Shown here: in pieces, positions 7,921 to 55,483 of the stretch
Layout of the letters: every line of letters starts with the position of its first letter
Numbering within the stretch: position 1 is the first letter of the stretch
NCBI GenBank assembly: GCA_964637885.1
Contig: CAZWXO010000001.1
Location: 111 to 64,110 of the forward strand
Length of the DNA: 64,000 nucleotides
Source: an uncultured bacterium
GTDB taxonomy: Bacteria > Bacillota > CAZWXO01
Direction: 5' to 3'
Made by a program: the position numbers and the translations under genes
Notes under the pieces: model-generated
Seen by the model: the letters and a program-made list of their open reading frames with translations, nothing else
Told to the model about the DNA's origin: nothing
Databases searched by the model: none

Positions 7921-9309
7921 ATGGATTTTGCAAAAACTTTGATTAATAAGAAAGTATGGATTGTGGGCCTGGGTAAATCTGGCCTGGCTTGTGCTCGTGT
8001 GCTGGATAATTTAAGCTGCCAGTTAGTGCTTAGTGATTCTCGCGGCCTAGAATCTTTCACTGAAGGCAGCTTATCGGAGTACCATGTACGCGGTCATGAG
8101 TTTCGCTTTAACGATAATCTTGACAATTCACCGGATGCGCTTGATTACGTAATCTTGAGTCCGGGAATTTCTCCACACCTGCCTGTTTTTAACAGACTCC
8201 GAACTGCGAATATTCCGATAATAGGTGAGATTGAACTGGCTTATCGATTGGGTGGTGAGTTGAACATTGTAGGAATAACTGGCACAAATGGCAAAACAAC
8301 TACGACAGCCTTAGTAAAGGATATATTCGTGCAAGCCGGCTATGAAGCCTATGCTGTGGGAAATATTGGGCTTCCGCTCATCTCGGTTATTGAAAAAGCC
8401 GGCAACGATGCTGTTTTTGTTACTGAACTTTCTAGCTTTCAGTTAGAAACCACAGAATTGTTACGAGTTAAAGTTGCAGCAATTATTAACATTACCCCAG
8501 ACCATCTCGATCGACACGGTGATATGAAGAGCTATATTGAGGCCAAGGCCCGGATTTTGCGTAATCAAGGGCAGGACGATTTTGCGATTATCAATGAGGA
8601 TGATGAGTTTGTAGCTCCTTTACGGGAACAGTGTCGAGGGAAAGTTATTGGAATCAGCAGAAAAAATCTCGAAAATAGCGGTGTTTTTTTGAAAGATGGG
8701 GCGATCTATGTCAACTTCGATAATGTCGGGCAGTTTGTCATCAATCTCTCCGAGATAAAAATTCCGGGAATGCATAATGTGGAAAATTCTTTAATCGCGA
8801 TTGGATGCTGCTTAGCCTATGGCATCGATATAACTACGATGGCAAAGGTTCTAAAGAAATTCCCAGGTGTGCCACATCGACTCGAAGAAGTCGGGGTCGT
8901 GCGGAATATACGTTTTGTTAACGATTCCAAGGGGACCAATGTCGATGCTTCTTGCAAGGCATTGGATGCTTTTCATTGTCCAATTGTGTTAATAGCTGGC
9001 GGCCGAGGCAAGGGAGCTTCATATGGAGAATTTGCTGAAAAAATCAGCAAAAGCGTGGAATTTGTAATTTTAATTGGGGAAGATGCGGATCTTATCAGTC
9101 AAGCATTGAAAAGAGTTGCTTTTTTCGATTTTGCGTTTGCATCAAATATGTCTGATGCTGTCTCTAGTGCTTATCAGCATGCGAGAGAGGGCGGAATTGT
9201 CCTACTTTCTCCGGCCTGTGCAAGTTTTGATATGTATAAAAATTTTGAAGAAAGAGGAGAAGCTTTTACTTTTTGCGCCCGGAAATTGATTAGTGATGAA
9301 AATATATAG
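7921..9309 (+). CDS. murD: UDP-MurNAc-L-Ala:D-Glu ligase MurD
   Basis: GLGKSG Rossmann N-terminus and Mur ligase P-loop (GITGTNGKTTT); RBS GAGGAGAGG. Confidence 0.93.
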   Translation: MDFAKTLINKKVWIVGLGKSGLACARVLDNLSCQLVLSDSRGLESFTEGSLSEYHVRGHEFRFNDNLDNSPDALDYVILSPGISPHLPVFNRLRTANIPIIGEIELAYRLGGELNIVGITGTNGKTTTTALVKDIFVQAGYEAYAVGNIGLPLISVIEKAGNDAVFVTELSSFQLETTELLRVKVAAIINITPDHLDRHGDMKSYIEAKARILRNQGQDDFAIINEDDEFVAPLREQCRGKVIGISRKNLENSGVFLKDGAIYVNFDNVGQFVINLSEIKIPGMHNVENSLIAIGCCLAYGIDITTMAKVLKKFPGVPHRLEEVGVVRNIRFVNDSKGTNVDASCKALDAFHCPIVLIAGGRGKGASYGEFAEKISKSVEFVILIGEDADLISQALKRVAFFDFAFASNMSDAVSSAYQHAREGGIVLLSPACASFDMYKNFEERGEAFTFCARKLISDENI

Positions 9310-10411
9310 ACGGCGGCATAGTGATATTTATATTGTGTTAGCGACAGTCATGCTAGCAATAATTGGCTTGGTAATGGTGTATAGTGCAAGTTCGGTTACT
9401 TCGACAATTGAACATGACGGAGTAAGTACCTTTTACTTGTTTAAGCAGTTACGGTGGGCTGGGCTGGGCGCCGGTATTTTTTTAGCGTGTTATTTTATGG
9501 ATTATCATTTGTTCACTAAATTATCCTTCGTTGCGATTGTAGTTGTTATTATTTTATTAATTCTTGTTTTGATCCCTGGAATCGGGATTAAGGTTTCTGG
9601 TTCAATGAGGTGGCTAAGCTTGGGGGGGTTCAGGTTTCAGCCTTCGGAGCTGGCTAAACTGGCGATGATTTTTTGGATAGCTGATTATTTTAGCAGAACA
9701 AAGGATGTTTTTTTAGACTTTACCGGCAAAGTGTTACCGGGTCTTTTCCCGTGCGGCATTATTTTATTACTGGTAATTCTTGAGCCAGACCTAGGAACAA
9801 CGGTTCTTTTATCAGCTATTGCCATGATTTTATTTTTCACAGCTGGTATGCATGTAATTCAGCTTCTGGGATTGTCCTGTGTTGGTCTGACAGGGGTGAT
9901 TTTTAAGATTATGAGTACCGATTATCAATTAGACCGGATTCTCTCTTTTGTCAATCCTTGGGACGACCCGTTAGGGAAAGGTTATCAAATTATTCAATCT
10001 TACTACGCCATCGGATCGGGAGGATGGTTTGGGGCTGGTTTAGGGGCAAGTAAACAAAAATTTTTCTGGCTACCGGAGCAACATACAGATTTTATTTTTG
10101 CAGTAATTGGGGAAGAATTGGGTTTCATAGGAATAATAGTTGTCGTAATTCTATTTATAACGATAATTAGTCGGGGATTCATTATTGCGAATAACGCAGA
10201 CGATATTGCAGGCAGATTGGTTGCGACAGGAATGACCTCGATGCTAGGGTTGCAAGCCTTTTTAAATATGGGCATGGTGGTAGGTATTTTGCCGATTACT
10301 GGAGTTACTTTGCCTTTTATTTCATACGGAGGTTCGTCTTTTCTCGTCTCATCAGTCTGTATCGGGATGCTGGCGAGTGTTTCAAGACCGAGAAAAAAGG
10401 GGATGGAATAA
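9293..10411 (+). CDS. ftsW: SEDS-family peptidoglycan glycosyltransferase FtsW/SpoVE
   Basis: 10-TM SEDS protein with the conserved LPFISYGGSS C-terminal motif. Confidence 0.9.
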   Translation: MMKIYRRRHSDIYIVLATVMLAIIGLVMVYSASSVTSTIEHDGVSTFYLFKQLRWAGLGAGIFLACYFMDYHLFTKLSFVAIVVVIILLILVLIPGIGIKVSGSMRWLSLGGFRFQPSELAKLAMIFWIADYFSRTKDVFLDFTGKVLPGLFPCGIILLLVILEPDLGTTVLLSAIAMILFFTAGMHVIQLLGLSCVGLTGVIFKIMSTDYQLDRILSFVNPWDDPLGKGYQIIQSYYAIGSGGWFGAGLGASKQKFFWLPEQHTDFIFAVIGEELGFIGIIVVVILFITIISRGFIIANNADDIAGRLVATGMTSMLGLQAFLNMGMVVGILPITGVTLPFISYGGSSFLVSSVCIGMLASVSRPRKKGME

Positions 10412-12897: not shown

Positions 12898-13647
12898 ATG
12901 AAAAAGAAAAAAAACAAATATCTTAAAATTCGGTTCAAATTCATATTTTTTCTCTTCATCGCAGTAAGTATAGTTTTTATTGCTTGGTATTTCGTTGTTG
13001 AGCGTGAAGTTTTTAATTTGCGTTCAATTACTGTTGAAGGGCTTCATAGCTATGATGAAGAGTATTTCCTTAAGGAAGTCGAAATTGAATTGGGCATGAA
13101 TATCTTTTTTATCAACGAAAAGCGGATCAATCGGGATGTTGAGGAAATGCTGCGGATTCGCGAGGTTGAAGTGCAGCGAAATTTACCTGATCGCGTCTCA
13201 ATCCGTGTCGAAGAGCGAGCAGGCCAATTTTTGCTAAATTATGGAGGAAATTTTTTTCTTATCGATACAGATGGTATAATATTCGACAAGGCACAGGATG
13301 CAAAAGAATATGATCTGCCATGCCTTGTTGACGAAATGTATGGCGAAGTTGAATTGGGTAAGGGTATCAGTGAGGGGGATGCATTCTTTTTATTTTCTTT
13401 ATTGAAAAAAATGCCAGCTACTACACTGAAAAACATATCAGAAGTCTCATACATAAATGGTGATGTTGTAATGTATACTGTGAATGGAGTAAAAGTACTT
13501 TGGGGTGACGATGCCGAGAATTTTCAGGTTAAACTGAAAGTTTTTGAAAAACTCCCTGCCATTGCCGAGGATTACGGAAATGTCGAGTACATTGATATCA
13601 GATACGGAGATAATCCGATAATTAAAACATTGGAGAGTGGGGATTAA
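12898..13647 (+). CDS. ftsQ: Cell division protein FtsQ/DivIB with a POTRA domain
   Basis: N-terminal basic region, one TM segment, POTRA-like (ITVEGLHSYDEEYFLKE), beta-domain. Confidence 0.85.
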   Translation: MKKKKNKYLKIRFKFIFFLFIAVSIVFIAWYFVVEREVFNLRSITVEGLHSYDEEYFLKEVEIELGMNIFFINEKRINRDVEEMLRIREVEVQRNLPDRVSIRVEERAGQFLLNYGGNFFLIDTDGIIFDKAQDAKEYDLPCLVDEMYGEVELGKGISEGDAFFLFSLLKKMPATTLKNISEVSYINGDVVMYTVNGVKVLWGDDAENFQVKLKVFEKLPAIAEDYGNVEYIDIRYGDNPIIKTLESGD

Positions 13648-13649
13648 GA

Positions 13650-14360
13650 TTGCAGCATAGCCGACGTTGGCAGTTGTCCATTGCATTTGTGTGTATGTTT
13701 TTGGGAGTAGTATTGGCTGTGCAATTTAGAACACAAGTCTTATTTGAGAACCAGGTTGTCAACCAAAGAGAAGAAGATTTAGTAACTTCGCTCAAGCAGT
13801 CGGAGGAATCCCGAAAATCTCTGGAAGACGAGTTAGCAAAGCTTAAAAAACTAGTGGAAGACGAGACGACTGGCGCGGACGTGATTTTGCAAGAGGAGAT
13901 GGTTGTCACAAGGATTGCTGCTGGGATTATACCGGCAGAGGGGGAAGGAATTATTATCACTATGCGTGATAGTAACCGCCCAGTCCAAAGTGGCGATGAC
14001 CCAAACGCATATTTAATTCACGACACGGATCTGCTAAAAGTAGTGAATGAGTTAAAGGCTTCTGGCGCAGAGTGCATTAGCGTGAATGAGCAGCGCATCA
14101 CGGCCATGAGCGAGATAAGATGCGCCGGTCCGACGATTCTTGTAAACCGGGTGCGACTAGCACCTCCCTACATTATTAAAGCAACTGGAGATGGGGAAAC
14201 GTTAACAAACGGATTAAAGATGCCTGGCGGCATTGTTGAAACTTTGCAGTATTGGGGTATAATGGTCGAAATAAAAAAGAGTCAAAAGATTCTTATTCCT
14301 GCCTTTAAGGGTAGCTTTGAGTACAAGCATACTACTGCTCCGAAGGGGGATGTTAATTAA
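13650..14360 (+). CDS. DUF881 (YlxW/YlxX-like) division-associated membrane protein
   Basis: N-terminal TM segment, coiled coil, conserved DUF881 C-terminal region; TTG start; same position as B. subtilis ylxW/ylxX between divIB and sbp. Confidence 0.7.
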   Translation: MQHSRRWQLSIAFVCMFLGVVLAVQFRTQVLFENQVVNQREEDLVTSLKQSEESRKSLEDELAKLKKLVEDETTGADVILQEEMVVTRIAAGIIPAEGEGIIITMRDSNRPVQSGDDPNAYLIHDTDLLKVVNELKASGAECISVNEQRITAMSEIRCAGPTILVNRVRLAPPYIIKATGDGETLTNGLKMPGGIVETLQYWGIMVEIKKSQKILIPAFKGSFEYKHTTAPKGDVN

Positions 14361-14728
14361 TGTGGATTCCTTTAGCAGGACTAGTTCTAGGTGTCGTCAT
14401 CGGCTTGCTTTCCGGGATCACGGTTCCTTTTTTCTACGCTAAGTATCTATCGATAGCGATACTTGCTGCTTTGGATTCTGTCTTTGGTGGATGGCGGTCA
14501 GCGTATGAGAATAATTTTGACACTAAGATTTTTATTTCCGGGTTTTTCGGAAATGCGCTTCTAGCTGCATTGTTGGCATTTATGGGGGATCGGCTCGGGG
14601 TTGATTTGTATTTAGCAGCAGTGGTCGCATTTGGAGTGCGCTTGTTTCAGAATGCAGCAATAATCAGAAGGTATGTGTTGGGCAAGAAAATTAGGGTTTT
14701 TAATTCCGAATCACATAAAAATATATAA
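14360..14728 (+). CDS. sbp: Small basic protein Sbp (DUF1290)
   Basis: 122-aa hydrophobic protein immediately upstream of ftsZ, as in Bacillus. Confidence 0.7.
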
Positions 14729-14739
14729 GGGGGTGCACT

Positions 14740-15807
14740 ATGCCCATAACGTTTGATGAAAATGGGATTGCCCAGCCAGCAATAATAAGAGTAATTGGTG
14801 TTGGCGGTGGTGGAAATAATGCTATTGAGCGGATGATAGGTGCCAATTTAAAGGGAGCGGATTTTATTTCTGTCAACACGGATGCGCAAGTTTTGTCGCG
14901 CTCTTCCGCAGAGCATCGCATCCAAATAGGCGAGAAATTGACTAAGGGGAGAGGAGCCGGTGCAGATCCAGAAATAGGGCGTCGCGCTGCCGACGAGAGC
15001 AAGGACCATATTGAGACGGTGATTAATGGATGCGACATGATTTTTGTGACTGCAGGGATGGGGGGCGGAACGGGAACAGGTGCAGCCCCAGTCATCGCGC
15101 AAATGGCAAAAAATGCAGGTATTTTGACTGTTGGTGTTGTGACAAAACCCTTTTCAGCGCTAGAGGGACCAAAGCGGATGCGGCAAGCTGAAGAGGGGAT
15201 TAAACTGCTTAAAGCTAATGTCGATGCTTTGGTTGTGATCCCTAACGATCGTTTGTTGCAGGTGCTTGAGCGGGGAACAACTCTCTTAGAAGCCTTTCGC
15301 GTGGCTGACGATGTCCTGCGTCAGTGTGTGCAAGGTATTTTGGATACCATTCTGAAGCCAGGATTAATAAACCTGGATTTCGCTGATGTGAAACGAATCA
15401 TGGAAAATTCTGGTTCGGCCTTGATGGGAATTGGCATCGGGCGTGGTGAAAACAGAGTGGTTGATGCTGCCAAAGCTGCCGTTGAAAGTCCCTTATTAGA
15501 AGTCTCCATCGAAGGAGCTAAGGGTGTACTATTCAATGTCACTGGCGGACCGGATTTAGTCTTAGAACAGATAATGGAAGCATCGCGTTATATAACTGAA
15601 GTTGCTTCTGAAGGGGCAGAGATTATTTTTGGTGCGACGATAGAAGACTCCTTGGAAAATGAGACACGAATAACAATCATTGCGACTGGATTTGACCGAC
15701 CTTCGCGCAAAGTAAGAGAAATTGACGAACCTGTGAAACCAGATACACTACCAAATCAAAATACTGGCGAATTTGAGATACCTCCTTGGCTTCGATCCCG
15801 TGGTTGA
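14740..15807 (+). CDS. ftsZ: Tubulin-like GTPase FtsZ
   Basis: GVGGGGNNA and [13 protein letters not shown] signature motifs; RBS AAGGGGGTG. Confidence 0.97.
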
Positions 15808-15824
15808 TAACCGAAAGGGGTAAT

Positions 15825-16556
15825 GTGTTGGGCGATCATAAACGTCTTATTTTAGTGGACGGGAACATTGCTTTTTGCAAGATGTTTCAGGAATACGTGG
15901 CATTTTATTCCGAGTTTAAGCTAGTGGGCGTTTTTCACAACGGGCTCGAGGCTGCACGGGAATGCCCTAACCTTTCTCCGGACATTATTGTGCTGGACAA
16001 TGCTGTGCCTTTCTTGGACGGTTTAAATTTATTGAAAGTGTTCCAAAAAAGTTTGTCATCAAAAAAACCAGTAATTATAATGTTAACCGCTTTTAGTCAG
16101 GAGAATGTCGCTCGACGAGCACTTGAATTGGGAGCGGATTGTTTTATGGCCAAACCTTTGGGTATGAATAATCTTGTCCATCGGATGCAACAACTGATTA
16201 AAGGCGACGTTTTCGTTGCGGACAGGAAAACAGAAACGATTGAAGCATATCTAATTTCTCTCGGATTAGATTCACATTTGCAGGGTTTTCGCTATTGTGT
16301 TGATGGGGTAAAAATATTGCTGGATTTTTCGCCACGATCGGCTAGCGGACTTGGAAAATATATCTATCATGAATTGTCGAGAGCTAACTCAAAATCAGTG
16401 GCGAGTATCGAGCGCTCGATGCGCTATGCAATTACAAACCGAATTGGCAGCACTCCAATTGTGGACAACGGTCAGACTAATGTCGCTTTTATTTATTCTA
16501 TTTATCGTGCGATGTCGGAGAAAGAGGTTTTCTCGGCATTGTACAGTGAAAGGTGA
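15825..16556 (+). CDS. Spo0A-family response regulator: REC domain plus Spo0A_C DNA-binding domain. The acidic pocket reads VDGN where Spo0A has ADDN.
   Basis: Colinear similarity to B. subtilis Spo0A. REC blocks: DIIVLDNAVPFLDGL and VIIMLTAFSQENVARRALELGADCFMAKP. C-terminal recognition helix: VASIERSMRYAITNRIG versus Spo0A ASRVERAIRHAIEVAWSRG. Likely start is GTG 15825, preceded by AAAGGGG; the track ATG 15786 overlaps ftsZ. Confidence 0.8.
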   Translation: MLGDHKRLILVDGNIAFCKMFQEYVAFYSEFKLVGVFHNGLEAARECPNLSPDIIVLDNAVPFLDGLNLLKVFQKSLSSKKPVIIMLTAFSQENVARRALELGADCFMAKPLGMNNLVHRMQQLIKGDVFVADRKTETIEAYLISLGLDSHLQGFRYCVDGVKILLDFSPRSASGLGKYIYHELSRANSKSVASIERSMRYAITNRIGSTPIVDNGQTNVAFIYSIYRAMSEKEVFSALYSER

Positions 16557-17685
16557 TATTTTGATTAACGGGATTGCCCGAATTAACAAGCGTACCAAAG
16601 AGTTAACAAAGATAATCAAGCCATCTGAAATCGCAGTTATCGATCACGATGACATTGATGAGGTATCAGCCAAGGCTTTAGTTTCCTGTCGAATTAAATG
16701 TGTTTTAAACGCAGCGCCATCGATTAGTGGCAAATATCCGAATCATGGCCCTTTGCACATGGTGGAGAATGGCATTTTTTTAATCGATAATTGTGGTGCG
16801 GAGCTTTTTGACAAGCTTGTTGAAGGCGCGGTTATTTCGATCAATGAAACAACTGGGGAAATATTGCAGAACGATAAAGTTTTGGTCAATGGACAACCCC
16901 AAAATGCGGAGTCGTTGAAGCTTCAAATGCTACAAGCAAAAGACAACGTCGCAGAGGAATTGGATCGATTTGTCGTAAATACACTGGAATTTGCGCGAAA
17001 TGAAATCGGTTTAATTACTGATGATTTATTGATGCCGGAGATGGAGACTGTTTTTAATGACAAGCACGCGTTAATTGTTGTTCGAGGGAAGTACTATAAA
17101 GAAGATCTGCAGGCCATCAGTTCCTATATCAAAGAACAACGGCCAGTACTTATCGGTGTCGATGGTGGAGCCGACGCTTTGCTGGAGATGGGTTTTGTTC
17201 CTGATGTTATTATTGGGGATATGGATAGCGTCTCAGATGCCGCATTGTGTTGCGGGGCCGAGCTGGTCGTTCATGCTTACCGCAATGGAATAGCACCTGG
17301 ACTGGAAAGGGTTCAGCAACAGGGGCTAAGTGCAAAAATTTTTGCTTCTGCTGGAACGAGCGAAGATATAGCGATGTTGATGGCATATGAATATCAGGCG
17401 AAATTAATTGTCGCCGTTGGAACACACTCAAACATGATTGATTTTTTGGAGAAGGGCCGGAAAGGGATGGCGAGTACATTTTTAGTTCGCCTTAAAGTCG
17501 GATCTATTCTTGTCGATGCCAGAGGGGTAGCCGAATTACAAAAAATGCGTTTTAAAAAACGTTATTTCGTCGCATTATTTTTTGCCGCTTTTATACCTTT
17601 GGCCTTGGTTATCGCGTTGTCCCCTGTTTTTATGCCAATGCTAAGCTTATTATTGATTAAGATACAGGTTATTTTAGGAATTTAG
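16546..17685 (+). CDS. steA: SteA-like putative cytokinetic-ring protein with a thiamine-pyrophosphokinase-like fold and a C-terminal TM anchor
   Basis: TPK-like motif (VLIGVDGGADALLEMGFVPDVIIGDMDSVSD) and a C-terminal hydrophobic helix; about 380 aa like actinobacterial SteA. Start is GTG 16546 or TTG 16561, overlapping the end of the regulator gene. The track ATG 16351 lies inside the upstream gene. Confidence 0.7.
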   Translation: MKGDILINGIARINKRTKELTKIIKPSEIAVIDHDDIDEVSAKALVSCRIKCVLNAAPSISGKYPNHGPLHMVENGIFLIDNCGAELFDKLVEGAVISINETTGEILQNDKVLVNGQPQNAESLKLQMLQAKDNVAEELDRFVVNTLEFARNEIGLITDDLLMPEMETVFNDKHALIVVRGKYYKEDLQAISSYIKEQRPVLIGVDGGADALLEMGFVPDVIIGDMDSVSDAALCCGAELVVHAYRNGIAPGLERVQQQGLSAKIFASAGTSEDIAMLMAYEYQAKLIVAVGTHSNMIDFLEKGRKGMASTFLVRLKVGSILVDARGVAELQKMRFKKRYFVALFFAAFIPLALVIALSPVFMPMLSLLLIKIQVILGI

Positions 17686-17691
17686 GAGATT

Positions 17692-18597
17692 TTGAGAATG
17701 ATCATCGATGTTAGATATCATGTTGCTTCTTTAGTAGCTGTGTTTTTAGCCCTTGCTTTAGGAATATTGATGGGCATGTCTTTGCTTAACGGGCAGAGCG
17801 TTTTGGAGAAGCAGCAGGAACTAGTAGAAAGCCTCCGCAGCGATTTTGAAAAATTAAAAGATGATAACGACGCCTTGCAGGCACATTTATCCCAGCTTGA
17901 CAGCAAAAATATCTCGGATGAAAAATTTATGCGCACGCTGCTTCCAGGCATTATAAAGGAGAAACTCGTCGACAAGAATTATCTTATAATTCGAACAAAT
18001 ACCGATGTCGATCTCAATGAACTCGCTTCAACGATTGTGTTAGCTGGGGGCAGCTCGGAGATGGTGATAACCTTTAAAGAAAATTTTCTGCAAATCCTAC
18101 AGAATCAATCAGACAAATATATTGATGCGTTTAATATCGACTGGAAAGAGGATCCAGAAGAGGACGCTGCTCAAATTATTGAGATAGTTTTCTCAATGCT
18201 TGGTGAAGCTGAAAACTCACGGGGCCTGGCTTTGTTGGAACAGTTACAAGCTGATGGAGCGGTCTCGTATAGTGGAAGATTGCAGACGCCTCCCAAGGGG
18301 GTTATTTTAGTTGGGGGTGCCAGCGCCGATGTCAATAATCTGGCAGGTGTAGACATACCAATAATTGAAATTTTGCGCTTGCGAGGGATTAGTGTAGTAG
18401 GTGTTGAAGAGTACCTAGTGCCATTGTCATACATCAAAGATTATCGAAAAAAGGGGATTTCGACTGTCGACAACATTGATTCAGTAGTTGGATTAATCTC
18501 GATGGTTGCAATCTTGAGTGGCGAGGAGGGCAACTATGGGCTCAAGGGAGGCTCCTCAGCCTTGATGCCTGTGATGGATAGTTGGATTACTGAATGA
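17692..18597 (+). CDS. steB: SteB/MctB-family ('copper transporter' DUF3186) membrane protein
   Basis: N-terminal TM segment then a long coiled coil; about 300 aa; follows steA by 7 nt, matching the steA-steB pairing described in Corynebacterium/Mycobacterium. Confidence 0.6.
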   Translation: MRMIIDVRYHVASLVAVFLALALGILMGMSLLNGQSVLEKQQELVESLRSDFEKLKDDNDALQAHLSQLDSKNISDEKFMRTLLPGIIKEKLVDKNYLIIRTNTDVDLNELASTIVLAGGSSEMVITFKENFLQILQNQSDKYIDAFNIDWKEDPEEDAAQIIEIVFSMLGEAENSRGLALLEQLQADGAVSYSGRLQTPPKGVILVGGASADVNNLAGVDIPIIEILRLRGISVVGVEEYLVPLSYIKDYRKKGISTVDNIDSVVGLISMVAILSGEEGNYGLKGGSSALMPVMDSWITE

Positions 18598-19259
18598 GTG
18601 AAATAATTGTATTAATGCCGGCTTACAATGAGTCGGATTTAATAGCGTCTACAGTTCAAGCTGTCGTAAAAGCTTGTCCTTTTGTCGATGTTTATGTTAT
18701 CGATGATGGATCGACAGACGATACAGCCCGTTGCGCGCAGGAAGCTGGTGCAAAAGTGATGCAAACACCATCAAATTTAGGAAAAGGTGGAGCACTAAAT
18801 TATGGTCTCGGAAAAATTGATGGTTTCAAGATAGTAGCTTTTCTAGACGCAGATCTGGGGGAATGTGCTGGTCAGGTGGCAGAGCTAATCGACTCTGTTC
18901 GGAGCGGCAATGCTGATATGGCGATTGCGGGCTTTCCCCCTGCCAAAATTAAAGGCGGCTTTGGTTTTGTCAAGCGTTTAGCACGGGACGGAATTTTGGA
19001 TAGGACGGGTGTATCGTTTAACTCTCCAATTTCAGGGCAAAGAGTCTTGCGCCAAGAAGTGATTGAAAAAATTGGTCCCATCGAAGAGGGATACGGAGCT
19101 GAAGTGGCCATGACTATCGATGCTTTGCGGGAAGGATTTAGTGTTGTTGAAATACCTCTGCAAATGAAACATCGGGAGTCGGGTAGGAATTTAAAGGGGT
19201 TTTTGCATCGCTGGCGTCAATACGTTCATATTCGAAGGGCATTGGCCAAAAGGCGGTGA
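18594..19259 (+). CDS. Small family-2 glycosyltransferase (polyprenyl-phosphate sugar synthase-like, DPM1/GtrB-like)
   Basis: MPAYNES ... DDGSTDDT ... DADL (DXD) motifs of GT-A fold GT2 enzymes; start overlaps the steB stop. Confidence 0.75.
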   Translation: MSEIIVLMPAYNESDLIASTVQAVVKACPFVDVYVIDDGSTDDTARCAQEAGAKVMQTPSNLGKGGALNYGLGKIDGFKIVAFLDADLGECAGQVAELIDSVRSGNADMAIAGFPPAKIKGGFGFVKRLARDGILDRTGVSFNSPISGQRVLRQEVIEKIGPIEEGYGAEVAMTIDALREGFSVVEIPLQMKHRESGRNLKGFLHRWRQYVHIRRALAKRR

Positions 19260-19268
19260 GAAGATACG

Positions 19269-20105
19269 ATGGATAGCAATCCTTATTTATTGTTTTTTTT
19301 GGGAAGTGGAGCTGCAATTTTCTGTGCCATTTTGGCCAGATATTTTTTATATCCGATGCTGTCAGCATGCCCTTATTTGCAACGACCCAATTACCGTCAG
19401 GAAATTGTTCCGATATCGGCCGGAATAATTTTTGTTTTTGCTGCGCTGCCGGTTCAAGCAGTTCTCTCAATCTATCAAATGCAAAACCGAACAATGTGGC
19501 TAACGTGGATGGCCTGTGTTTTGCTTTGTACTTTATTAGGTTTATTAGATGATATTGCTGGCAATCGTCATGACTCAGGTTTAAAAGGGCATTTGCGGGC
19601 TTTATTAAAAGAAGGTCGGCTCACGACTGGTGGGCTCAAAGCTGCAGGAGGTTTAATCATTGCTGTCTATGTTGCAGCACTTTTCACCCATAGTATTCTT
19701 GATTTCATGCTAGGTTCAGTTGCCGTTGCTCTATCAATTAATGTTATCAATATTTTTGACTTAAGACCCGGACGCGCTGGCAAGTCCTTTTTCTTTTTTT
19801 TGGCGCTAATTTTTCTTTTAGCGTCCTTCTCATGGGAGGTATTGAGCTATATTTTCCCGATTACAATTGCTCTACTGGTTTATTATCCCCTCGATGTGAA
19901 GGCACGTGCAATGATGGGGGATGCGGGGGCTAATGCCTTAGGGCTGTGCTTAGGTTTGACATCATTATGGTGCCTTTCTACTCTTTCTTTGTCGATTTAT
20001 GTACTTGTTTTATTCGTCATTCACGTAATTGCTGAAAAAAGTTCGATTACGGTAATCATCGAAAAAAATGCTTTGTTAAGAAAAATTGATCAGTTAGGAC
20101 GGTGA
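19269..20105 (+). CDS. Truncated MraY/WecA-family polyprenyl-phosphate sugar-1-phosphate transferase (PNPT, GT4 family), 278 aa
   Basis: Polytopic membrane protein with LLDDIAG (DD motif), NVINIFD and MGDAGANALGL, parallel to the MraY MGDTGSLALG. It is shorter than MraY/WecA and lacks the HHH loop. Confidence 0.65.
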   Translation: MDSNPYLLFFLGSGAAIFCAILARYFLYPMLSACPYLQRPNYRQEIVPISAGIIFVFAALPVQAVLSIYQMQNRTMWLTWMACVLLCTLLGLLDDIAGNRHDSGLKGHLRALLKEGRLTTGGLKAAGGLIIAVYVAALFTHSILDFMLGSVAVALSINVINIFDLRPGRAGKSFFFFLALIFLLASFSWEVLSYIFPITIALLVYYPLDVKARAMMGDAGANALGLCLGLTSLWCLSTLSLSIYVLVLFVIHVIAEKSSITVIIEKNALLRKIDQLGR

Positions 20106-20125
20106 GGAGTTTGGGAGTAAGGACG

Positions 20126-21235
20126 ATGGAAATAGTCGATACTTTTATGGAATTAGTGGCCATTGACTCGGAATCCTTTGCGGAAAGAGCTATGGCGGAT
20201 TATATTATCCAACGTCTGCGCGCTGCAGGTTGGCAGTGTGACGAAGATGACACGGGAAGCAAAATTGGAGGAAATGCAGGAAATATCTACGCTCGTTCAC
20301 CCGGCAATCTGCTGGCTGATAGCATAGTTATGATTGCACACATGGATCGAGTCAAACCTGGCAACAATGTCAAGGCTTGCATTTGCGATGGTCTGATTAG
20401 ATCTGATGGGTCAACGGTCCTCGGGGCGGATGATGCAGTGGGCATTGCTGTAATGTTGGGAATTGCCGATTACATCAGGGAGAATGATATTCAGGTGGCC
20501 CTGGAGTTTGTGTTTACAGTTGCAGAGGAGGTCGGCATTAAAGGCGCCAAATATTTTGATATGAACAAGGTCCAAGCTAGTTATGGATATACCTTTGATG
20601 CTGACGGTCCTGTAGGTACGGCAATTGTCGCTGCCCCGACTCATGTGCAATTTGTTGCCAATGTTGTCGGCAAGGCCGCTCATGCGGGGATTGCTCCGGA
20701 GAAAGGGATTAACGCGATCAAGATTGTCAGTCACGCTATCGCAGATATGAATATTGGAAGAATTTCTGAATATACTACAAGTAACGTAGGCACTGTGGCC
20801 GGTGGAGTCGCTACAAATATTATTCCTGCCGGGGTTGAAATACGAGGAGAGGTTCGGTCGCACCGCAAGCAGGAGCTAGAGGACAATCTAGCACACATCG
20901 AGGAGCAATTAAACAAAGCATGCCAGAAATTTAATGGTAGTTTTTCAATGGATATGGAAACAGCTTATTTTTCATTCAGAATGGATGAAGACTCAGAGGT
21001 TATTAAATTATTCCAGGAAGCTTGCGGCAGGGAAAATATCGAGTTTTGCACTGCTTGGAGTGGCGGAGGTAGTGACGCGAATATTTTTAATGCCAAAGGC
21101 AAAGAAATTCTGAATTTAGGCTCCGCTTTCCAGAAAATTCACAGCGTTGAAGAGTGTATAGCAATTAGCGATCTCGAAAATCTCTATCGCGTTGCGCTGC
21201 GTCTTGTCCTCCTACACATGGTAACGAATAAATGA
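20126..21235 (+). CDS. M20-family metallopeptidase (peptidase T-like)
   Basis: HMDRV, GADDAVG and AEEVG metal-binding motifs typical of M20/PepT; ATG 20126 is preceded by GGGAGTAAGGA. The track GTG 20102 overlaps the upstream stop. Confidence 0.7.
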   Translation: MEIVDTFMELVAIDSESFAERAMADYIIQRLRAAGWQCDEDDTGSKIGGNAGNIYARSPGNLLADSIVMIAHMDRVKPGNNVKACICDGLIRSDGSTVLGADDAVGIAVMLGIADYIRENDIQVALEFVFTVAEEVGIKGAKYFDMNKVQASYGYTFDADGPVGTAIVAAPTHVQFVANVVGKAAHAGIAPEKGINAIKIVSHAIADMNIGRISEYTTSNVGTVAGGVATNIIPAGVEIRGEVRSHRKQELEDNLAHIEEQLNKACQKFNGSFSMDMETAYFSFRMDEDSEVIKLFQEACGRENIEFCTAWSGGGSDANIFNAKGKEILNLGSAFQKIHSVEECIAISDLENLYRVALRLVLLHMVTNK

Positions 21236-22314
21236 ATTTATCATTGCGGGTCGGTGCAGTTTTAAGCATCGTTGAGGAAAGCGCAGACAAAATTGAATGT
21301 ACCGTGGAAATCGATGGTAAATCTTGCAAAGCCATCGCTTACCCTGGCATGGTACAAGAAGTTTCACCTGGTGATCAAGTTTTATTGAATACTACTGCGG
21401 TTGAAATGGGGCTGGGTACCGGGGGATTTCATTATGTTGTTAGCAATCTCGGTGCACCGGAATTAAAGGTTTCTGGACCTGGTCACATCATGAAATTGCG
21501 CTATACTCCAATGCAGATAAAAACATGTTGCGGTGAAGAAATGCTTGAATATCAAGAGCTTTTTAATCAGCAGGAAGGCATTGCCGGGTTACCGGTCGTC
21601 GCCCTAAATTTGCACAGTCAGCTTCCTTATGCTGTAGCTGGAATAAAATCCTTGCGCCCTCAGGCTCGAGTAGTATATATCCAAACGGACGGAGCTGCGC
21701 TACCTGTTGGCTTTAGCAAAATTGTTGCGGCCATGAAGGAAAATAGCATGCTTAACGGTGTTATTTCGTGTGGACATGCCTTTGGAGGCGACGTTGAAGC
21801 TGTCAACGTGTATTCGGCTTTGATTTTAGCTAAGGTTTCTTTGCAGGCAGATGTTGTGGTTGTGGGAATGGGACCGGGCATCGTAGGAACAGGCACATGG
21901 CTAGGTTTTACGGGTGTTGAGCAGGCAGATATTATGCACGCGGTGCAGGCTTTGGAAGGTATTCCGATTGCGGTCTGTCGGATTGGTTTTTCGGATAGTC
22001 GTCCCAGACATAATGGACTTAGTCATCATTCCCAAACTGTTTTAGGCAAACTGTTGCTGTGCGAGGTAAATCTTGTTTTGCCACCGATGGAGAGAGATAA
22101 ATATCAACAGGTTTATGCGGATCTAGAAAAGTGTGGTGCCGTTGCTAAGCATAGATTGCATCTACGGCAGGTGGATTTTGCTTTGGCATTATTAAAGGAT
22201 TTCCCCATAAAGATAACTACAATGGGCAGGGACTACTCTAAAGAGCCCGATTTCTTCAATGCAGCTGTAGCGGCGGGAATTTTTGCCGGAGAGAAGGTAA
22301 ACCCAAATGGATGA
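21232..22314 (+). CDS. Conserved hypothetical protein (possibly DUF3866-like): N-terminal small beta-barrel-like region plus a Gly-rich Rossmann-like region
   Basis: Long ORF translationally coupled to its flanks (ATGA overlaps). I recognised no catalytic motif; the family assignment is from memory only. Confidence 0.4.
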   Translation: MNLSLRVGAVLSIVEESADKIECTVEIDGKSCKAIAYPGMVQEVSPGDQVLLNTTAVEMGLGTGGFHYVVSNLGAPELKVSGPGHIMKLRYTPMQIKTCCGEEMLEYQELFNQQEGIAGLPVVALNLHSQLPYAVAGIKSLRPQARVVYIQTDGAALPVGFSKIVAAMKENSMLNGVISCGHAFGGDVEAVNVYSALILAKVSLQADVVVVGMGPGIVGTGTWLGFTGVEQADIMHAVQALEGIPIAVCRIGFSDSRPRHNGLSHHSQTVLGKLLLCEVNLVLPPMERDKYQQVYADLEKCGAVAKHRLHLRQVDFALALLKDFPIKITTMGRDYSKEPDFFNAAVAAGIFAGEKVNPNG

Positions 22315-22849
22315 GCGCACCATCGAACGTGAAGTGATATATTCAGGGAAAATAATTAGCTTGCATCGGGACAAAGTAATGCTTGATAATGGGCATGTAA
22401 CTTATCGTGAAGTCGTAACTCATCCGGGGGCAACGTGCGTTTTGCCGTGGAGTGCGGGACGGATTACTTTGGTGCAACAATACCGCAAGCCTGTTGAAGA
22501 AAATCTGTGGGAGATTCCAGCCGGCAAGTTAGAGCCAGGCGAGGATCCCCTGGAAAGTGCACAGAGGGAGCTATTGGAGGAAACAGGCCTACAGGCTCTA
22601 CAGATGCGATATTTAGGTAAATTTTATACTTCACCCGGTTTTTCGAGTGAGGTAATGCATGCATATATCGCCACTGATTTAAAACAGGCCTTGTCGAATC
22701 CGGATGATGATGAATTGCTGAGTATTAGATCTTTTTCTGTGGAGGAATTTGAGGAAATGATAAATGGCCAGAAAATATTAGATGGAAAAACTCTTCTGAC
22801 TTATTATCTGGCCAAGGTCGCTTTGGGTGAGGAGTTTGACTGGAAATGA
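22307..22849 (+). CDS. nudF: NUDIX hydrolase (ADP-ribose pyrophosphatase NudF-like)
   Basis: Nudix box GKLEPGEDPLESAQRELLEETG. Confidence 0.85.
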   Translation: MDERTIEREVIYSGKIISLHRDKVMLDNGHVTYREVVTHPGATCVLPWSAGRITLVQQYRKPVEENLWEIPAGKLEPGEDPLESAQRELLEETGLQALQMRYLGKFYTSPGFSSEVMHAYIATDLKQALSNPDDDELLSIRSFSVEEFEEMINGQKILDGKTLLTYYLAKVALGEEFDWK

Positions 22850-23553
22850 AAGCTCACAATATAAAAAACTGTCAACTTCATGAGCCGGCGATAATGATGG
22901 ACATGAATGCTAGCGGTGCGATGCGAGCCGCACTACGCGGTGATGTCGTCCTTATTGTGGATGTTATCGACATGTCGACATCGGCGGAGGCATTGTTGGA
23001 GCAAGGGCCTCTGGCCTTGTTTGGCGCAGCACTGGATTCAAGCTGTCCACCGGTTGCTGTTAACCCTTGGGGCATTGGCAAGTTGGCTAGTGAGCTCGCC
23101 AATGCAAATGGCGTTAACGTAGTTGTTGTTGCTGAGCCCCGTACAGACGAGATCAAAAGAATAGCAAGTATTTCGCAGCTATTGGCGGGTATAAAGTATG
23201 GCGGAGCGAAATACAGTGGGCCTTTCCCGAATATGGGATCTGAATTGGGGCAACTTGTTGATGCAGCAGGGCAAGTTGTCGTCATCGCTTCAGCTACTGG
23301 GGGAGTCGCCTGGGATGCGGCTCATTTGCACGGAGCTGCCTCTGTATTAACGGGGACTATTGCGCGGACAGTTGGCAAAAAAGGAGCGACCCCTGCGGAA
23401 ACCGCAGCTAGGCGTATTCTTGATGCGGCCCTGGCGCATCGCGTTGACATTTCTGTCATCGCTGCCAGTGGTAATTCTCTGGAGGATATTCTTGCATCCC
23501 AATATATTTACACGATTGTCAGGCAAAAATTAGCTGCTATGTCCAATGAATAA
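22846..23553 (+). CDS. Putative 2-phosphosulfolactate phosphatase family protein (ComB/YitC-like)
   Basis: VLIVDVIDMSTSAEALL resembles the ComB-family DVLRA(S/T)T N-terminal motif; length is about 235 aa. The assignment is tentative. Confidence 0.4.
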   Translation: MKAHNIKNCQLHEPAIMMDMNASGAMRAALRGDVVLIVDVIDMSTSAEALLEQGPLALFGAALDSSCPPVAVNPWGIGKLASELANANGVNVVVVAEPRTDEIKRIASISQLLAGIKYGGAKYSGPFPNMGSELGQLVDAAGQVVVIASATGGVAWDAAHLHGAASVLTGTIARTVGKKGATPAETAARRILDAALAHRVDISVIAASGNSLEDILASQYIYTIVRQKLAAMSNE

Positions 23554-24484
23554 AACTGAGGATTACAGTTATATTCAGGAATTTATCGACTACCTCATCG
23601 CCGAGCGAGGATTAAGTCTTAATACGACGGATGCTTATGCCCGAGATTTGCGACGATTAAACAAATATCGCAGCGAGCTTGACCAGAAATCTTTACTGGA
23701 GCTTGAGGGGCGCGATATTAGTCGCTATATTTGGTATTTAAATGCGGCAGGATACTCATCAACTTCGGTAGCGCGGGCATTAGCTGCTATCAAATCTTTT
23801 TATAATTATTTGTATCGCAATCGCGTTATTACCCAGCTGCCGACCTCATCTCTTCAATCTCCGAAGCTACCTCAAAAACTACCATCGGTGCTTTCAGTTG
23901 GGGAAGCTTCGCTTTTGCTCGAAAGCATACACGCCCTAGATGCTGTGACCTGCCGCGATCGTGCCATGCTGGAAGTATTGTACGGCACCGGGTTGCGTGT
24001 CAGTGAATTAGTCGGGCTAAGGGTCGAGGATTTGTGTCTGGAGTTGTCTTACTTACGGTGCCATGGGAAAGGCAACAAGGAAAGAATTGTGCCCTTGGGA
24101 AAACAAGCGGTTGTGTATCTTAAAAAATATCTGGATTATTTCAGACCGATTCTGTTGGAGGGGTTTGATAGCGAAATTTTGTTTGTCGGAGCAAAGGGTA
24201 AAAATATCACTAGGCAATTTTTCTGGCATCAGCTAAAAAAATACGCTGTCGAAGCCGGACTTGAAAAAAATATAAGTCCGCACACATTGCGCCACTCGTT
24301 TGCAACACATTTGGTCGAGGGTGGAGCAGATTTACGCTCAGTCCAAGAGATGTTAGGCCATGCTGATATTTCAACGACGCAAGTGTATACCCATGTTTCC
24401 GGAGCTAGACTAAAAGCGGTCTATAATAATAGTCACCCGAGGGCTAAGTTTAATCATAAGGAGGAGCGGAAAGATGACAATTGA
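23546..24484 (+). CDS. xerD: Tyrosine site-specific recombinase XerD/XerC
   Basis: N-terminal SAM-like domain and the catalytic RHSFATHLVEGGADLRSVQEMLGHADISTTQVYTHV box (R-H-R-Y). Confidence 0.9.
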   Translation: MNKTEDYSYIQEFIDYLIAERGLSLNTTDAYARDLRRLNKYRSELDQKSLLELEGRDISRYIWYLNAAGYSSTSVARALAAIKSFYNYLYRNRVITQLPTSSLQSPKLPQKLPSVLSVGEASLLLESIHALDAVTCRDRAMLEVLYGTGLRVSELVGLRVEDLCLELSYLRCHGKGNKERIVPLGKQAVVYLKKYLDYFRPILLEGFDSEILFVGAKGKNITRQFFWHQLKKYAVEAGLEKNISPHTLRHSFATHLVEGGADLRSVQEMLGHADISTTQVYTHVSGARLKAVYNNSHPRAKFNHKEERKDDN

Positions 24485-25325
24485 GAAATGGGAAGATCAA
24501 AACCGCAAAATTGATCAGGCAGCGAGTTATATCAATGAAGCTACTGGGGGATTGTCGGTAAAAATGGCTTTAGTCGCGGGTTCAGGGCTTGAGGGATTGA
24601 GCGAAGAATTAGAGCTAGTCAGGAATATACCTTTTGCGGAGATACCGCACATGAAAAAATCAGGTGTCCAGGGGCATGCCGGCGAGCTGAAGATAGGTTA
24701 TTTTTCGGGTATTCCAGTCATCATAGCTTCAGGAAGGTTGCACTATTATGAAGGACATTCGATGCAGGAAGTTACATTTTTAACACGGGTCATGGCGCGA
24801 TTAGGAGTAGAGACGTTGGTGCTGACCAATGCTTCGGGAGGCATAAACTCAAAATTTTCGGCTGGAAGTATGATGTTGATCTCAGATCATCTGAATTTGA
24901 TGCATGATAATCCGCTGCGCGGTCCCTTGCAGGAACAAGACGGTCCGAGGTTTCCTGACATGCACAATGCCTACGACAAAGATTTGCGCGAAAAAATGCA
25001 GGCCATTGCTTTACAAAAAGGAATCACCTTGCATGAAGGGGTCTACGTCGCACTCTCAGGCCCAAATTATGAAACGCCGGCGGAAATACGCATGCTAAAA
25101 ACCATGGGGGCAGACGCGGTTGGCATGTCGACAGTTCCTGAAGTCATTGTCGCTCGTCAGTGCGGCATCAGGATTCTGGCTATCTCACACATTGCTAATC
25201 CTGCGGCTGGTATGGGGGAAGGGGTCATTAGTCACGCCGAAGTACTGCAAGCTGGTCGTGCAGCAGCGGCTAAGACGATGATTTTGCTGCGGGAATTAAT
25301 CAAAGATTTAGGTCAGTTAGAGTAA
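24474..25325 (+). CDS. punA: Purine nucleoside phosphorylase I (PunA/PNP, trimeric type)
   Basis: PNP family 2 motifs (GSGLEGL, VGMSTVPE); length 283 aa. Confidence 0.88.
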   Translation: MTIEKWEDQNRKIDQAASYINEATGGLSVKMALVAGSGLEGLSEELELVRNIPFAEIPHMKKSGVQGHAGELKIGYFSGIPVIIASGRLHYYEGHSMQEVTFLTRVMARLGVETLVLTNASGGINSKFSAGSMMLISDHLNLMHDNPLRGPLQEQDGPRFPDMHNAYDKDLREKMQAIALQKGITLHEGVYVALSGPNYETPAEIRMLKTMGADAVGMSTVPEVIVARQCGIRILAISHIANPAAGMGEGVISHAEVLQAGRAAAAKTMILLRELIKDLGQLE

Positions 25326-40052: not shown

Positions 40053-40826
40053 TTGTACACTCACGCAATAAAGACATCCGTCGGAAATGTCCGAAAAATT
40101 AACGAAGACAGTTTGGCTGTGTTAGGGATGCGTCTTGGGGCAGTCGGTGAGGAGGTTGATATCCTCGGGATGGTTGTCGCTGATGGAATGGGTGGCTATC
40201 AGGCCGGAGAGGTGGCTAGTACGCTAGCCAAGCAGTGCTTTCTAGATTGCCTACCAGAGCTTTTTTCCCGGGGTAGGGATGACAAGGCAATTTTAGAATT
40301 TCTGGAAAACATATTTCGCCAATCAAACCAGCAAATTAATGAAAAATCTACAAAGGATCAAGAGTGCCGTGGCATGGGGACGACGCTGACTTTAGCTGTT
40401 TGTGTCGGCTCAAAGCTTTACATTGCTCATGCAGGGGATAGCAGAGGATATGTTCTTTCTGATGGCGAAATAAAACAAATAACCCGGGATGATTCTTTGG
40501 TCAATGAGTTATTGGAGGCTGGTACGATAACGCCTGAGGAAGCAGCAGTGCACCCACAAAAAAACATTATTACTAAGGCCCTCGGGACCGAAGACTACAT
40601 TGAGCCGCAATTATTGGTTTATCCCCTTAAAAACCTAGATATTATTGTTTTGACCAGCGATGGGTTAACTAATTTTGTTTCTGATGAGAGTATTCAAAGT
40701 GCGTTGCAAGATAGTTTGGATTTGGAGAATAGCCTCGCCAATTTGGTTGCACTTGCGGAGAATGCCGGAGGCTTTGATAACATATCTATAGCGTGCTGTA
40801 AATATAGTGATGAGGAGGTGCAATGA
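40053..40826 (+). CDS. stp: PP2C-family Ser/Thr phosphatase (Stp/PrpC)
   Basis: PP2C motifs (DGMGG, GTTLT, HAGDSR, TSDGL). TTG 40053 is preceded by a GGGGGG Shine-Dalgarno sequence; the track starts at TTG 40038. Confidence 0.88.
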   Translation: MYTHAIKTSVGNVRKINEDSLAVLGMRLGAVGEEVDILGMVVADGMGGYQAGEVASTLAKQCFLDCLPELFSRGRDDKAILEFLENIFRQSNQQINEKSTKDQECRGMGTTLTLAVCVGSKLYIAHAGDSRGYVLSDGEIKQITRDDSLVNELLEAGTITPEEAAVHPQKNIITKALGTEDYIEPQLLVYPLKNLDIIVLTSDGLTNFVSDESIQSALQDSLDLENSLANLVALAENAGGFDNISIACCKYSDEEVQ

Positions 40827-43386: not shown

Positions 43387-43407
43387 AGTATAAATTAATA
43401 AAGTGTG

Positions 43408-50622: not shown

Positions 50623-50650
50623 TTGCTGGACGAGAGAAAAGGTGGGAATA

Positions 50651-55373: not shown

Positions 55374-55483
55374 TTTCACTCCTTATTTTTAAAAATTATA
55401 ACAGAAATTTTTAATTTTTGTTGAAATGAGTGGGCTGGGGTATTAGAATGGACAAGTAAATTTTCGTAAAGGGGAAATTGTTG

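Follow-up and report, generated by a model that had tools for sequence, protein, structure and literature searches.

What becomes of a developmental master regulator once the programme it commands is lost or changed? A natural experiment of this kind is offered by one gene (positions 15825-16556, plus strand) in a stretch of 64,000 nucleotides from an uncultured bacterium of the Bacillota (assembly GCA_964637885.1, contig CAZWXO010000001.1, positions 111 to 64,110 of the forward strand; hereafter the window). The gene lies between ftsZ and steA, and its product resembles Spo0A, which is among the most conserved bacterial developmental regulators and whose presence in genomes and metagenome-assembled genomes (MAGs) is routinely taken as a marker of sporulation. 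Is it Spo0A, and if so, what kind of Spo0A? Our view is that of the 64-kb window together with the corresponding loci of relatives. From these we consider it probable that the gene is a vertically inherited positional ortholog of spo0A in a rare and so far uncultured lineage of the Bacillota, and that its product, derived from Spo0A, is now a DNA-binding regulator that probably works without phosphorylation. The features of the gene are as follows.

15825..16556, stop included (+): divergent spo0A ortholog (receiver domain, REC, plus Spo0A_C), 243 aa; from the open reading frame (ORF), Pfam, NCBIfam, positional orthology and purifying selection
15840..16202 (+): REC domain, residues ~6-126; from Pfam (residues 9-121), PDB matches, AlphaFold 2 (AF2) and Foldseek
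15858..15863 (+): acidic pair D12-G13 (B. subtilis D10-D11), the second Mg-site Asp being Gly; from alignments
15996..15998 (+): D58, the phospho-acceptor Asp (B. subtilis D56; VLD), retained; from alignments
16215..16523 (+): Spo0A_C-type DNA-binding domain, residues ~131-233; from Pfam, AF2 of the C-terminus and Foldseek
16398..16436 (+): recognition helix, residues 192-204, with E196-R197-x-x-R200 (B. subtilis E213-R214-R217); from alignments and the AF2 helix position
16437..16478 (+): 14-residue loop, residues 205-218, replacing the end of helix D, the turn and helix E; from alignments and AF2

That the product is a Spo0A-lineage protein with both domains, and not a generic REC protein, is supported by profile searches and by structural models. 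Pfam recognises Response_reg (E 9.8e-17) and Spo0A_C (PF08769; E 1e-7, 32.3 bits against a gathering score of 25, profile positions 1-66 of 104), while among the NCBIfam models TIGR02875 (spore_0_A; E 2.2e-38, 132 bits, with the runner-up at 60.6 bits) leads by a wide margin, being matched over model positions 4-216 of 262 at a score below the curated equivalog cutoff of 200. A PDB sequence search with the whole protein returned Spo0A receiver domains as its top four matches, and with the C-terminal 116 residues the sole matches were the Spo0A DNA-binding domains 1LQ1 and 1FC3 (E 0.019 and 0.044). When aligned, B. subtilis Spo0A, seven metagenomic Spo0As and the window protein prove colinear. 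For the full-length AF2 model the mean predicted local distance difference test score (pLDDT) is 84.7, with the REC region mostly at 79-97, and this region matches the Spo0A receivers 5WQ0 and 1QMP with target-normalised template modelling (TM) scores of 0.88-0.93. Since the full-length Foldseek list was dominated by receiver domains and hence uninformative on the C-terminus, residues 128-243 were modelled alone (pLDDT 86.8, predicted TM score 0.81); the seven significant PDB matches of this model were all 1LQ1 or 1FC3 chains (E 2e-4 to 6.5e-4, TM 0.66-0.80, probability 1.00), the next match having an E value of 2 or above. A first-pass annotation had read the gene as a Spo0A-family regulator colinear with B. 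subtilis Spo0A, and its statements about the sequence (colinearity, the DG pair, D58, T88, K110 and the motif ERSMRYA) proved correct throughout, far beyond chance. The Spo0A_C domain, whose absence that annotation said would overturn its reading, is found both by the profile and, subject to the bias of the AF2 input alignment discussed below, in the C-terminal model.

Where does the gene come from? Its surroundings in the window are these.

14740..15807 (+): ftsZ, directly upstream, last gene of the dcw cluster mraZ...ftsQ-DUF881-sbp-ftsZ
15813..15820 (+): Shine-Dalgarno-like GAAAGGGG, read from the sequence, 4 nt 5' of GTG 15825 and 7 nt 5' of TTG 15828
16546..17685 (+): steA (TPK_catalytic plus SteA-like_C), with an 11-bp overlap with the 3' end of the gene
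17692..22314 (+): mctB-GT2-GT4-M20 peptidase-DUF3866 block downstream of steA, the basis of positional orthology
22846..24484 (+): conserved hypothetical gene (235 aa) and, in direct overlap with it, xerD

We compared this locus with three outgroups: a Bacillota MAG (L002), a JGI contig (L015) and the cultured sporeformer Desulfofarcimen acetoxidans DSM 771 (L016; CP001720). In L002 and L015 the order is dxs-tlyA-nadK-methyltransferase-argR-recN-spoIVB-spo0A-steA-mctB-GT2-GT4-(ferredoxin/oxidoreductase insert)-M20-DUF3866; in L016 it is spo0A-steA-mctB-GT2-GT4-M20-DUF3866-(222-aa gene)-spoIIM-...-xerD; and in the window it is X-steA-mctB-GT2-GT4-M20-DUF3866-NUDIX-(235-aa gene)-xerD-pnp, where X is the gene under study. 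Because the downstream block steA-mctB-GT2-GT4-M20-DUF3866 is shared with all three, the window gene is the positional ortholog of spo0A. The 235-aa protein of the window and the 222-aa proteins of the outgroups are likewise orthologs (48-50% identity by tblastn). The 235-aa protein has no Pfam family, and the NUDIX gene of the window (22307-22849) has no called equivalent in the outgroups.

Since the order spo0A-steA is present in sporulating relatives, the steA linkage is ancestral, and the derived part of the locus is the 5' junction only, where ftsZ stands in place of recN-spoIVB. The first-pass annotation had noted that the gene follows ftsZ and overlaps steA, as it does (17-bp spacer, 11-bp overlap), and had taken this context as unusual; the description holds for the ftsZ junction, which is derived, but not for the steA adjacency, which is ancestral in L002, L015 and L016. 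It had also placed spo0A next to spoIVB in sporeformers, as is the case in L002 and L015 but not in L016, where neither recN nor spoIVB occurs within 9 kb on the upstream side of spo0A, so that not every sporeformer has spoIVB beside spo0A. The stretch upstream of spo0A in this genome (L016:1-9800) contains an IS605 OrfB-like gene, a recombinase gene and a glyoxalase gene.

The losses extend beyond the junction. In L015 (19786-21131, ending within spoIIM) and L016 (16094-19208) spoIIM follows the 222-aa gene, in L016 before xerD, and both spoIVB and spoIIM are gone from their syntenic places in the window. Searches of the 64 kb by tblastn with outgroup SpoIVB, SpoIIM, RecN and ArgR gave no matches, and with canonical Spo0A the sole match was the gene itself. 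None of sigE, sigF, sigG, sigK, spoIIGA, spoIIM, spoIIIA, spoIVA and spoIVB is present within the window, and a Pfam scan of ten of its ORFs, six of them unidentified by eye, revealed no sporulation families. In B. subtilis and clostridial maps spoIIGA-sigE-sigG usually lies downstream of ftsZ, a position occupied here by the gene under study instead. spoIVB and spoIIM occur in all spore-formers (PMC3533761).

The gene is also tightly packed. Its ORF is intact (243 codons plus the stop TGA at 16554-16556) and starts probably at GTG 15825, alternatively at TTG 15828; the ftsZ stop ends at 15807, so that the spacer amounts to 17 bp in total, and the 11 bp shared with steA are counted from GTG 16546, a start set by comparison with the ortholog in a related contig (L001). 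In the outgroups, 125-201 bp separate spo0A from steA and 134-480 bp separate it from the nearest called upstream gene, against 17 bp and -11 bp here: the window gene is without the two promoter-bearing intergenic regions that flank outgroup spo0A. A promoter and terminator scan of the region from 12.5 to 18 kb yielded counts close to shuffle expectation and nothing convincing in the ftsZ-gene spacer. From mraZ (72) to pnp (25325) every gene is on the plus strand, with tiny gaps or overlaps; this 25-kb co-directional run is closed by an NFACT/RqcH-type gene (25313-27043, minus strand, 576 aa), which, together with 54105-55379, is one of only two long minus-strand genes in the window.

How far has the protein diverged? 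Among the outgroups no gene of the block is better conserved than spo0A, with 81-84% identity against 41-65% for six neighbouring genes; in the window it is about the least conserved, with 32-34% identity to the outgroups against 33-58% for the same neighbours. On TIGR02875 the outgroup Spo0As score 424-425 bits and the window protein 132, with its relatives P0002, P0019 and P0020, described below, at 125, 97 and 95. This divergence does not look like decay. Compared with the 81%-identical ortholog in L001, the gene has proportions of nonsynonymous (pN) and synonymous (pS) differences of 0.099 and 0.667 and a nominal ratio of nonsynonymous to synonymous rates (dN/dS) of 0.065, approximate because dS is saturated; the ratio is 0.054 for REC and 0.072 for the C-terminus, and the value of the gene is comparable to those of xerD, GT4 and steA. 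Judging from this pattern of substitution, the gene is under purifying selection and functional, not decaying. Horizontal transfer of the gene was considered and rejected, as its GC content and its GC content at third codon positions equal those of the neighbouring genes.

What has changed in the receiver? The five-residue phospho-acceptor pocket is incomplete, with four residues present and Gly at the D11 position (G13, codon 15861-15863, motif VDGN). The residues kept are D12, which corresponds to B. subtilis D10, the phospho-acceptor D58, T88 (MLTAF, 16086-16088) and K110 (AKP, 16152-16154; B. subtilis K108). Four clade members are known, and their acidic pairs read DG, DG, DG and DS; one of them (P0019) additionally shows Thr to Leu and Lys to Arg changes. 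In an alignment of 93 sequences, namely B. subtilis Spo0A, the window protein and 91 relatives that were retrieved by similarity to the latter and a few of which lack Spo0A_C, the pair is DD in 62 and ED in 13, the remainder being degenerate (DS, DG, DN, EN, DT, DA) apart from one gapped sequence, so degenerate acidic pockets are uncommon and not unique to the clade. In C. difficile Spo0A the substitution D11A causes a severe sporulation defect and lowers dimerisation (bioRxiv 10.1101/2022.02.07.479450). Since the second Mg-coordinating Asp is lost in all four members, and Thr and Lys also in one, the activity of the protein is probably independent of aspartyl phosphorylation or only weakly dependent on it, as expected for a pseudo-receiver.

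The C-terminal domain presents a different picture, in which the DNA-contacting surface has been kept and an adjacent element has been lost. The recognition helix contains ERSMRYA (16410-16430), which the first-pass annotation described as altered. The reading of the letters was right and the adjective too strong: none of the alignments (A1, A2 and A3) shows any change at E196, R197 or R200, and ERSIR, ERSMR and RYA/RYV variants are present in other Spo0A_C proteins, which places ERSMRYA within the variation of the family. Within the clade, at 41% overall identity, K190, S194, E196, R197, R200, Y201, A202 and N205 are invariant, which argues that DNA binding is the selected function; the clade-specific invariant motifs are SPRSxxGxG, K..S.ER..RYA..N and LQGFRYC/LLGYFYC. 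With the fold and the contact triad conserved, the product most likely still binds DNA.

The recognition helix is immediately followed by a net deletion of 12-13 residues with respect to canonical Spo0A, so that only 9 aa separate the helix from the PTNSEF-like motif here, compared with 22 aa in the canonical proteins. The AF2 model of the C-terminus has no helix at 205-218 and its pLDDT is lower there. By alignment and model, then, the six-helix DNA-binding domain is not complete, helix E being deleted, while the domain as a whole retains its structural match to 1LQ1 and 1FC3. Helix E (approximately residues 227-240) is reportedly the sigma-A activating region of B. subtilis Spo0A, as Kumar, Brannigan and Moran are said to have described in 2004 in J Bacteriol. 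In addition, the hinge is cut to ~4-5 residues (pLDDT is low at 129-132) and the alignment places a 4-aa deletion in helix A. The deletion of helix E, the collapsed linker, the intergenic losses and the reversal of evolutionary rate were all absent from the first-pass annotation.

How widespread is this form? It is rare. A word-indexed search of 5.8 billion proteins retrieved only P0001 (99% identity) and P0002 (81%) before canonical Spo0As appeared at ~31%, and an exhaustive HMMER search of 1.84 billion cluster representatives added P0019 (42%) and P0020 (43%). A profile search for further clade members added none; scans with the clade alignment found only unrelated REC proteins (23-30% identity) and no clade member among GTDB species representatives, and only unrelated REC proteins in a metagenome contig collection; and an exact 44-mer from L001, used to walk upstream, had no match among metagenome contigs. 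All four clade members show the arrangement sbp-ftsZ-X-steA, with the gene intact in four sublineages, and the ftsZ-X junction of the window is seen in L001, L004, L005 and L024. Between sublineages, identity is 89-90% for FtsZ, 66-75% for SteA and 41-42% for X, which makes X the fastest-evolving gene of the ftsZ-X-steA unit. The best matches of SteA (52-59% identity) come from Desulfotomaculia, Thermincolia, Carboxydocella, Carboxydothermus and Syntrophomonas, which places the host in a lineage that branches deeply within the Bacillota.

In a neighbour-joining tree of 80 Spo0A_C proteins, in which long-branch attraction is possible, the four members group together in 60 of 60 bootstraps and are joined by P0021 in 40 of 60, with P0023 as the next sister. 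P0023 (L024:2-1035; 38% identity, 211 bits on TIGR02875) keeps DD, T and K and has a 24-aa segment after the helix; a fragment upstream of its gene encodes an FtsZ C-terminus (...ITVIATGFD...DIPPFLRR*), and steA-mctB-GT2-GT4-M20 follows. P0021 (L017:44-805; 39% identity, 186 bits) also has DD, T and K intact, and its gene ends 9 bp upstream of steA-mctB-GT2-GT4, in a contig that does not reach the 5' flank. Both share with the clade the motifs F-Y-P/S-E-F and LDN and the position upstream of steA (P0023 also the whole ftsZ-X-steA arrangement), and both differ from it in keeping DD, T and K, a full post-helix segment of 20-24 aa and scores of 186-211 bits. They resemble intermediate stages in a common trend. 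As P0023 in L024 shows, the ftsZ-spo0A-steA junction is older and more widely spread than the loss of the pocket and the deletion of helix E, which suggests that the ftsZ junction came first and the erosion of the protein later.

These observations can be brought together as follows. The 5' flank of spo0A, comprising recN-spoIVB and the spo0A promoter region, would have been replaced by the end of the dcw cluster, giving a packed ftsZ-spo0A*-steA unit. With canonical constraint lost, the protein would have diverged very fast while staying functional. It would have kept the Spo0A_C fold and the E-R-x-x-R core, and with them DNA binding, possibly at sites like the 0A-box; its receiver would act as a pseudo-receiver, with activity probably without aspartyl phosphorylation or weakly tied to it; and, as helix E, the presumed sigma-A activation surface, is absent, it may work mainly as a repressor or through another activation surface. 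We infer co-transcription with ftsZ and steA from the packing of the genes, and as the gene has no promoter region of its own, its expression is probably constitutive together with theirs and not switched on by starvation signals.

Several points weigh against this explanation, or at least against parts of it. The clade members are all known from sequence alone, and the window offers 64 kb of one genome, so that sporulation genes or a second spo0A may lie elsewhere. The retention of D58, T88 and K110 would permit some phosphorylation to persist, perhaps with Mg bound less tightly. The part played by helix E in sigma-A activation is taken from what is reported for B. subtilis, the AF2 input alignment included canonical Spo0As and biases the model toward the Spo0A fold, and the saturation of dS mentioned above makes the selection estimate a rough one. 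Finally, the core of the 0A-box, TGTCGAA, occurs 14 times in the window against 8.15 expected (at least 14 in 2 of 100 shuffles), but none of the 14 sites is at a recognisable promoter position, and the count was not used as evidence. One TGTCGAA site (16687-16693) is found within steA, just 3' of the gene.

What else could the gene be? The first-pass annotation proposed a Spo0A-lineage regulator repurposed for division control or, failing that, the Spo0A of an organism with an unusual layout of its sporulation genes. Its view that the gene is of the Spo0A lineage stands, while its readings of the context and of the helix had to be corrected. On the former proposal, the protein would be a dedicated regulator or protein partner of cytokinesis, placed between ftsZ and steA. 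The packing ftsZ-X-steA is common to all four clade members and to the more distant, less degenerate P0023 of L024, the gaps are tiny or overlapping, the NCBI name of SteA is 'putative cytokinetic ring protein', and canonical Spo0A~P already shifts division to the cell pole. However, the steA linkage is ancestral and found in ordinary sporeformers, and hence no sign of a new function; the ftsZ adjacency is perhaps a by-product of whatever rearrangement or deletion took away spoIVB and the promoter region; and the search for TGTCGAA in the window revealed no 0A-box enrichment at dcw promoters. What speaks for the proposal is thus the conserved packing, half of which (steA) is ancestral, and we regard it as unlikely. 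An extended form of it, which seems to us equally doubtful, holds that a Bacillota group made up of the clade, P0023 and possibly the P0021 lineage has turned Spo0A into a constitutively co-expressed component of an ftsZ-steA division operon. The stepwise series from canonical Spo0A through P0023 and P0021 to the clade would then record the losses of its own promoter, of the phospho-pocket and of the sigma-A activation helix, and what emerged from them would be a regulator or partner of vegetative cytokinesis that needs no phosphorylation. The other proposal, that of a working sporulation master regulator in a cryptic sporeformer with its sporulation genes located elsewhere, strikes us as quite improbable. 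It fits the positional orthology of the gene, the retention of D58, T88, K110 and the DNA-contact triad, the lack of an adjacent spoIVB even in the known sporeformer L016, and the spore-forming Desulfotomaculia as the nearest relatives by SteA. It sits badly, by contrast, with an identity of 32-34% where sporeformer Spo0As share 81-84%, with a score far under the TIGR02875 cutoff, and with the loss of the D11 position, since D11A cripples C. difficile sporulation (bioRxiv 10.1101/2022.02.07.479450). The deletion of helix E, the missing promoter region, the further loss of T and K in P0019 and the disappearance of spoIVB and spoIIM from their syntenic places speak against it too, as does the absence of spoIIGA-sigE-sigG after ftsZ, their usual place.

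Two further possibilities concern the status of the gene itself. Metagenomes contain many divergent response regulators with Spo0A_C, several of them with degenerate pockets (DS, DN, DA, DT, DG), and the genome beyond the 64 kb is outside our view, so the gene might be a paralog with a canonical spo0A elsewhere; but it fills the exact ancestral spo0A slot, whereas duplication should have put the copy at a new site and spared the original, it does not differ in composition from the adjacent genes, and the window contains no second match to canonical Spo0A. A paralog is on these grounds very unlikely, and the degenerate duplicate that the first-pass annotation had envisaged is at odds with both the orthologous position and the purifying selection. 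A functionless relic, decaying after the loss of sporulation, would explain why the gene fell from the most to about the least conserved of its cluster, why identity between sublineages is 41-42% when that of FtsZ is 89-90% and that of SteA 66-75%, and why catalytic residues are eroding. Against this, four sublineages have an intact ORF, the gene order is old and has stayed stable, the clade has invariant motifs of its own, and pN is 0.10 against a pS of 0.67, with both domains constrained as in the neighbouring housekeeping genes; we find a relic hard to credit at all. The vertically inherited, functional and structurally reduced ortholog thus remains the explanation that we favour.

Several other observations were made in the window. 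The 3' part of the dcw cluster (12898-15807) reads ftsQ-DUF881-sbp(DUF1290)-ftsZ, with no ftsA between sbp and ftsZ, and the cluster contains a single penicillin-binding protein gene (1910-4057, with PASTA domains) and a single gene of the FtsW/SpoVE family (9293-10411). Between 40038 and 43361, prkC (40823-42694) is followed by rpe (42705-43361) with no rsgA/cpgA between them, and coaD (53069-53638) is followed by a 153-aa ORF without a Pfam family (53653-54114), with no ylbJ-like sporulation membrane gene after it; in the B. subtilis layout, rsgA/cpgA lies between prkC and rpe and a ylbJ-like gene after coaD. An FMN (flavin mononucleotide) riboswitch (43406-43558; RF00050, 89.9 bits) precedes an ordinary ribD-ribE-ribBA-ribH operon, where the ribD start as called (43543) overlaps with the aptamer and has probably been placed too far 5'. 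A 548-aa ORF (50642-52288) with a sub-threshold FliK (Flg_hook) match (E 0.004) follows Asp23/DAK2 (yloV-like) genes, in the position that recG holds in many Firmicutes.

What does this locus mean for the way in which Spo0A is understood? Here a genuine positional ortholog is accepted by the Pfam domain test but falls short of the equivalog threshold, is without one residue of the catalytic pocket and an activation helix, and lies in a locus cleared of the sporulation genes once next to it. Such a case calls for caution in scoring MAGs as sporeformers by spo0A, and if the gene does regulate division, it would tie the origin or the afterlife of the sporulation switch to a core cytokinesis operon. 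In comparison with Spo0A itself (B. subtilis P06534; TIGR02875; 1QMP, 1LQ1 and 1FC3), the window protein shares the REC plus Spo0A_C architecture and fold, the slot upstream of steA, the phospho-acceptor Asp, Thr and Lys, and the E-R-x-x-R core of the recognition helix. In spite of these similarities, there are important differences: (i) it has 28-34% identity to Spo0A proteins and scores 132 bits where the cutoff is 200; (ii) D11 has become Gly; (iii) helix E (12-13 aa) is deleted, the hinge is reduced to ~4-5 residues and helix A is 4 aa shorter; and (iv) the locus has neither a promoter/0A-box region of its own nor an adjacent spoIVB.

Two groups of known proteins offer parallels. Atypical, phosphorylation-independent response regulators with pseudo-receivers include BldM and WhiI of Streptomyces, HP1043 of Helicobacter and ChxR of Chlamydia. 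Like these, the window protein is an orphan with no cognate kinase gene nearby, lacks part of the phospho-chemistry set and keeps its DNA-binding domain, and all four clade members have lost at least one of the receiver's five conserved residues, as is the rule for atypical regulators; unlike these, its output domain is Spo0A_C and not of the OmpR or NarL type, D, T and K are still present, and its independence of phosphorylation is a deduction. The other parallel is with bacteria that do not sporulate. Spo0A is retained in 30 non-spore-former genomes, including those of Exiguobacterium, Macrococcus caseolyticus and Bacillus selenitireducens, which are without sigE, sigF, sigG, sigK, spoIIGA, spoIIM and spoIVB (Galperin 2012, PMC3533761), and 15 further cases have been reported (Davidson 2018, PMC6136694). 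As in the window, an ortholog is kept where sporulation genes are gone, which points to a function outside sporulation; the likeness is one of gene content, and in the window the loss of sporulation genes is known locally only. In the literature consulted here we found no report of such a divergence of Spo0A, of a trend toward a pseudo-receiver, of a deletion of helix E or of a fusion into an ftsZ-steA unit. Taken together, the retention of Spo0A in non-spore-formers was already known, and what appears to be new here is the divergence of the protein, the erosion of its pocket, the deletion of helix E and the incorporation of its gene between ftsZ and steA.

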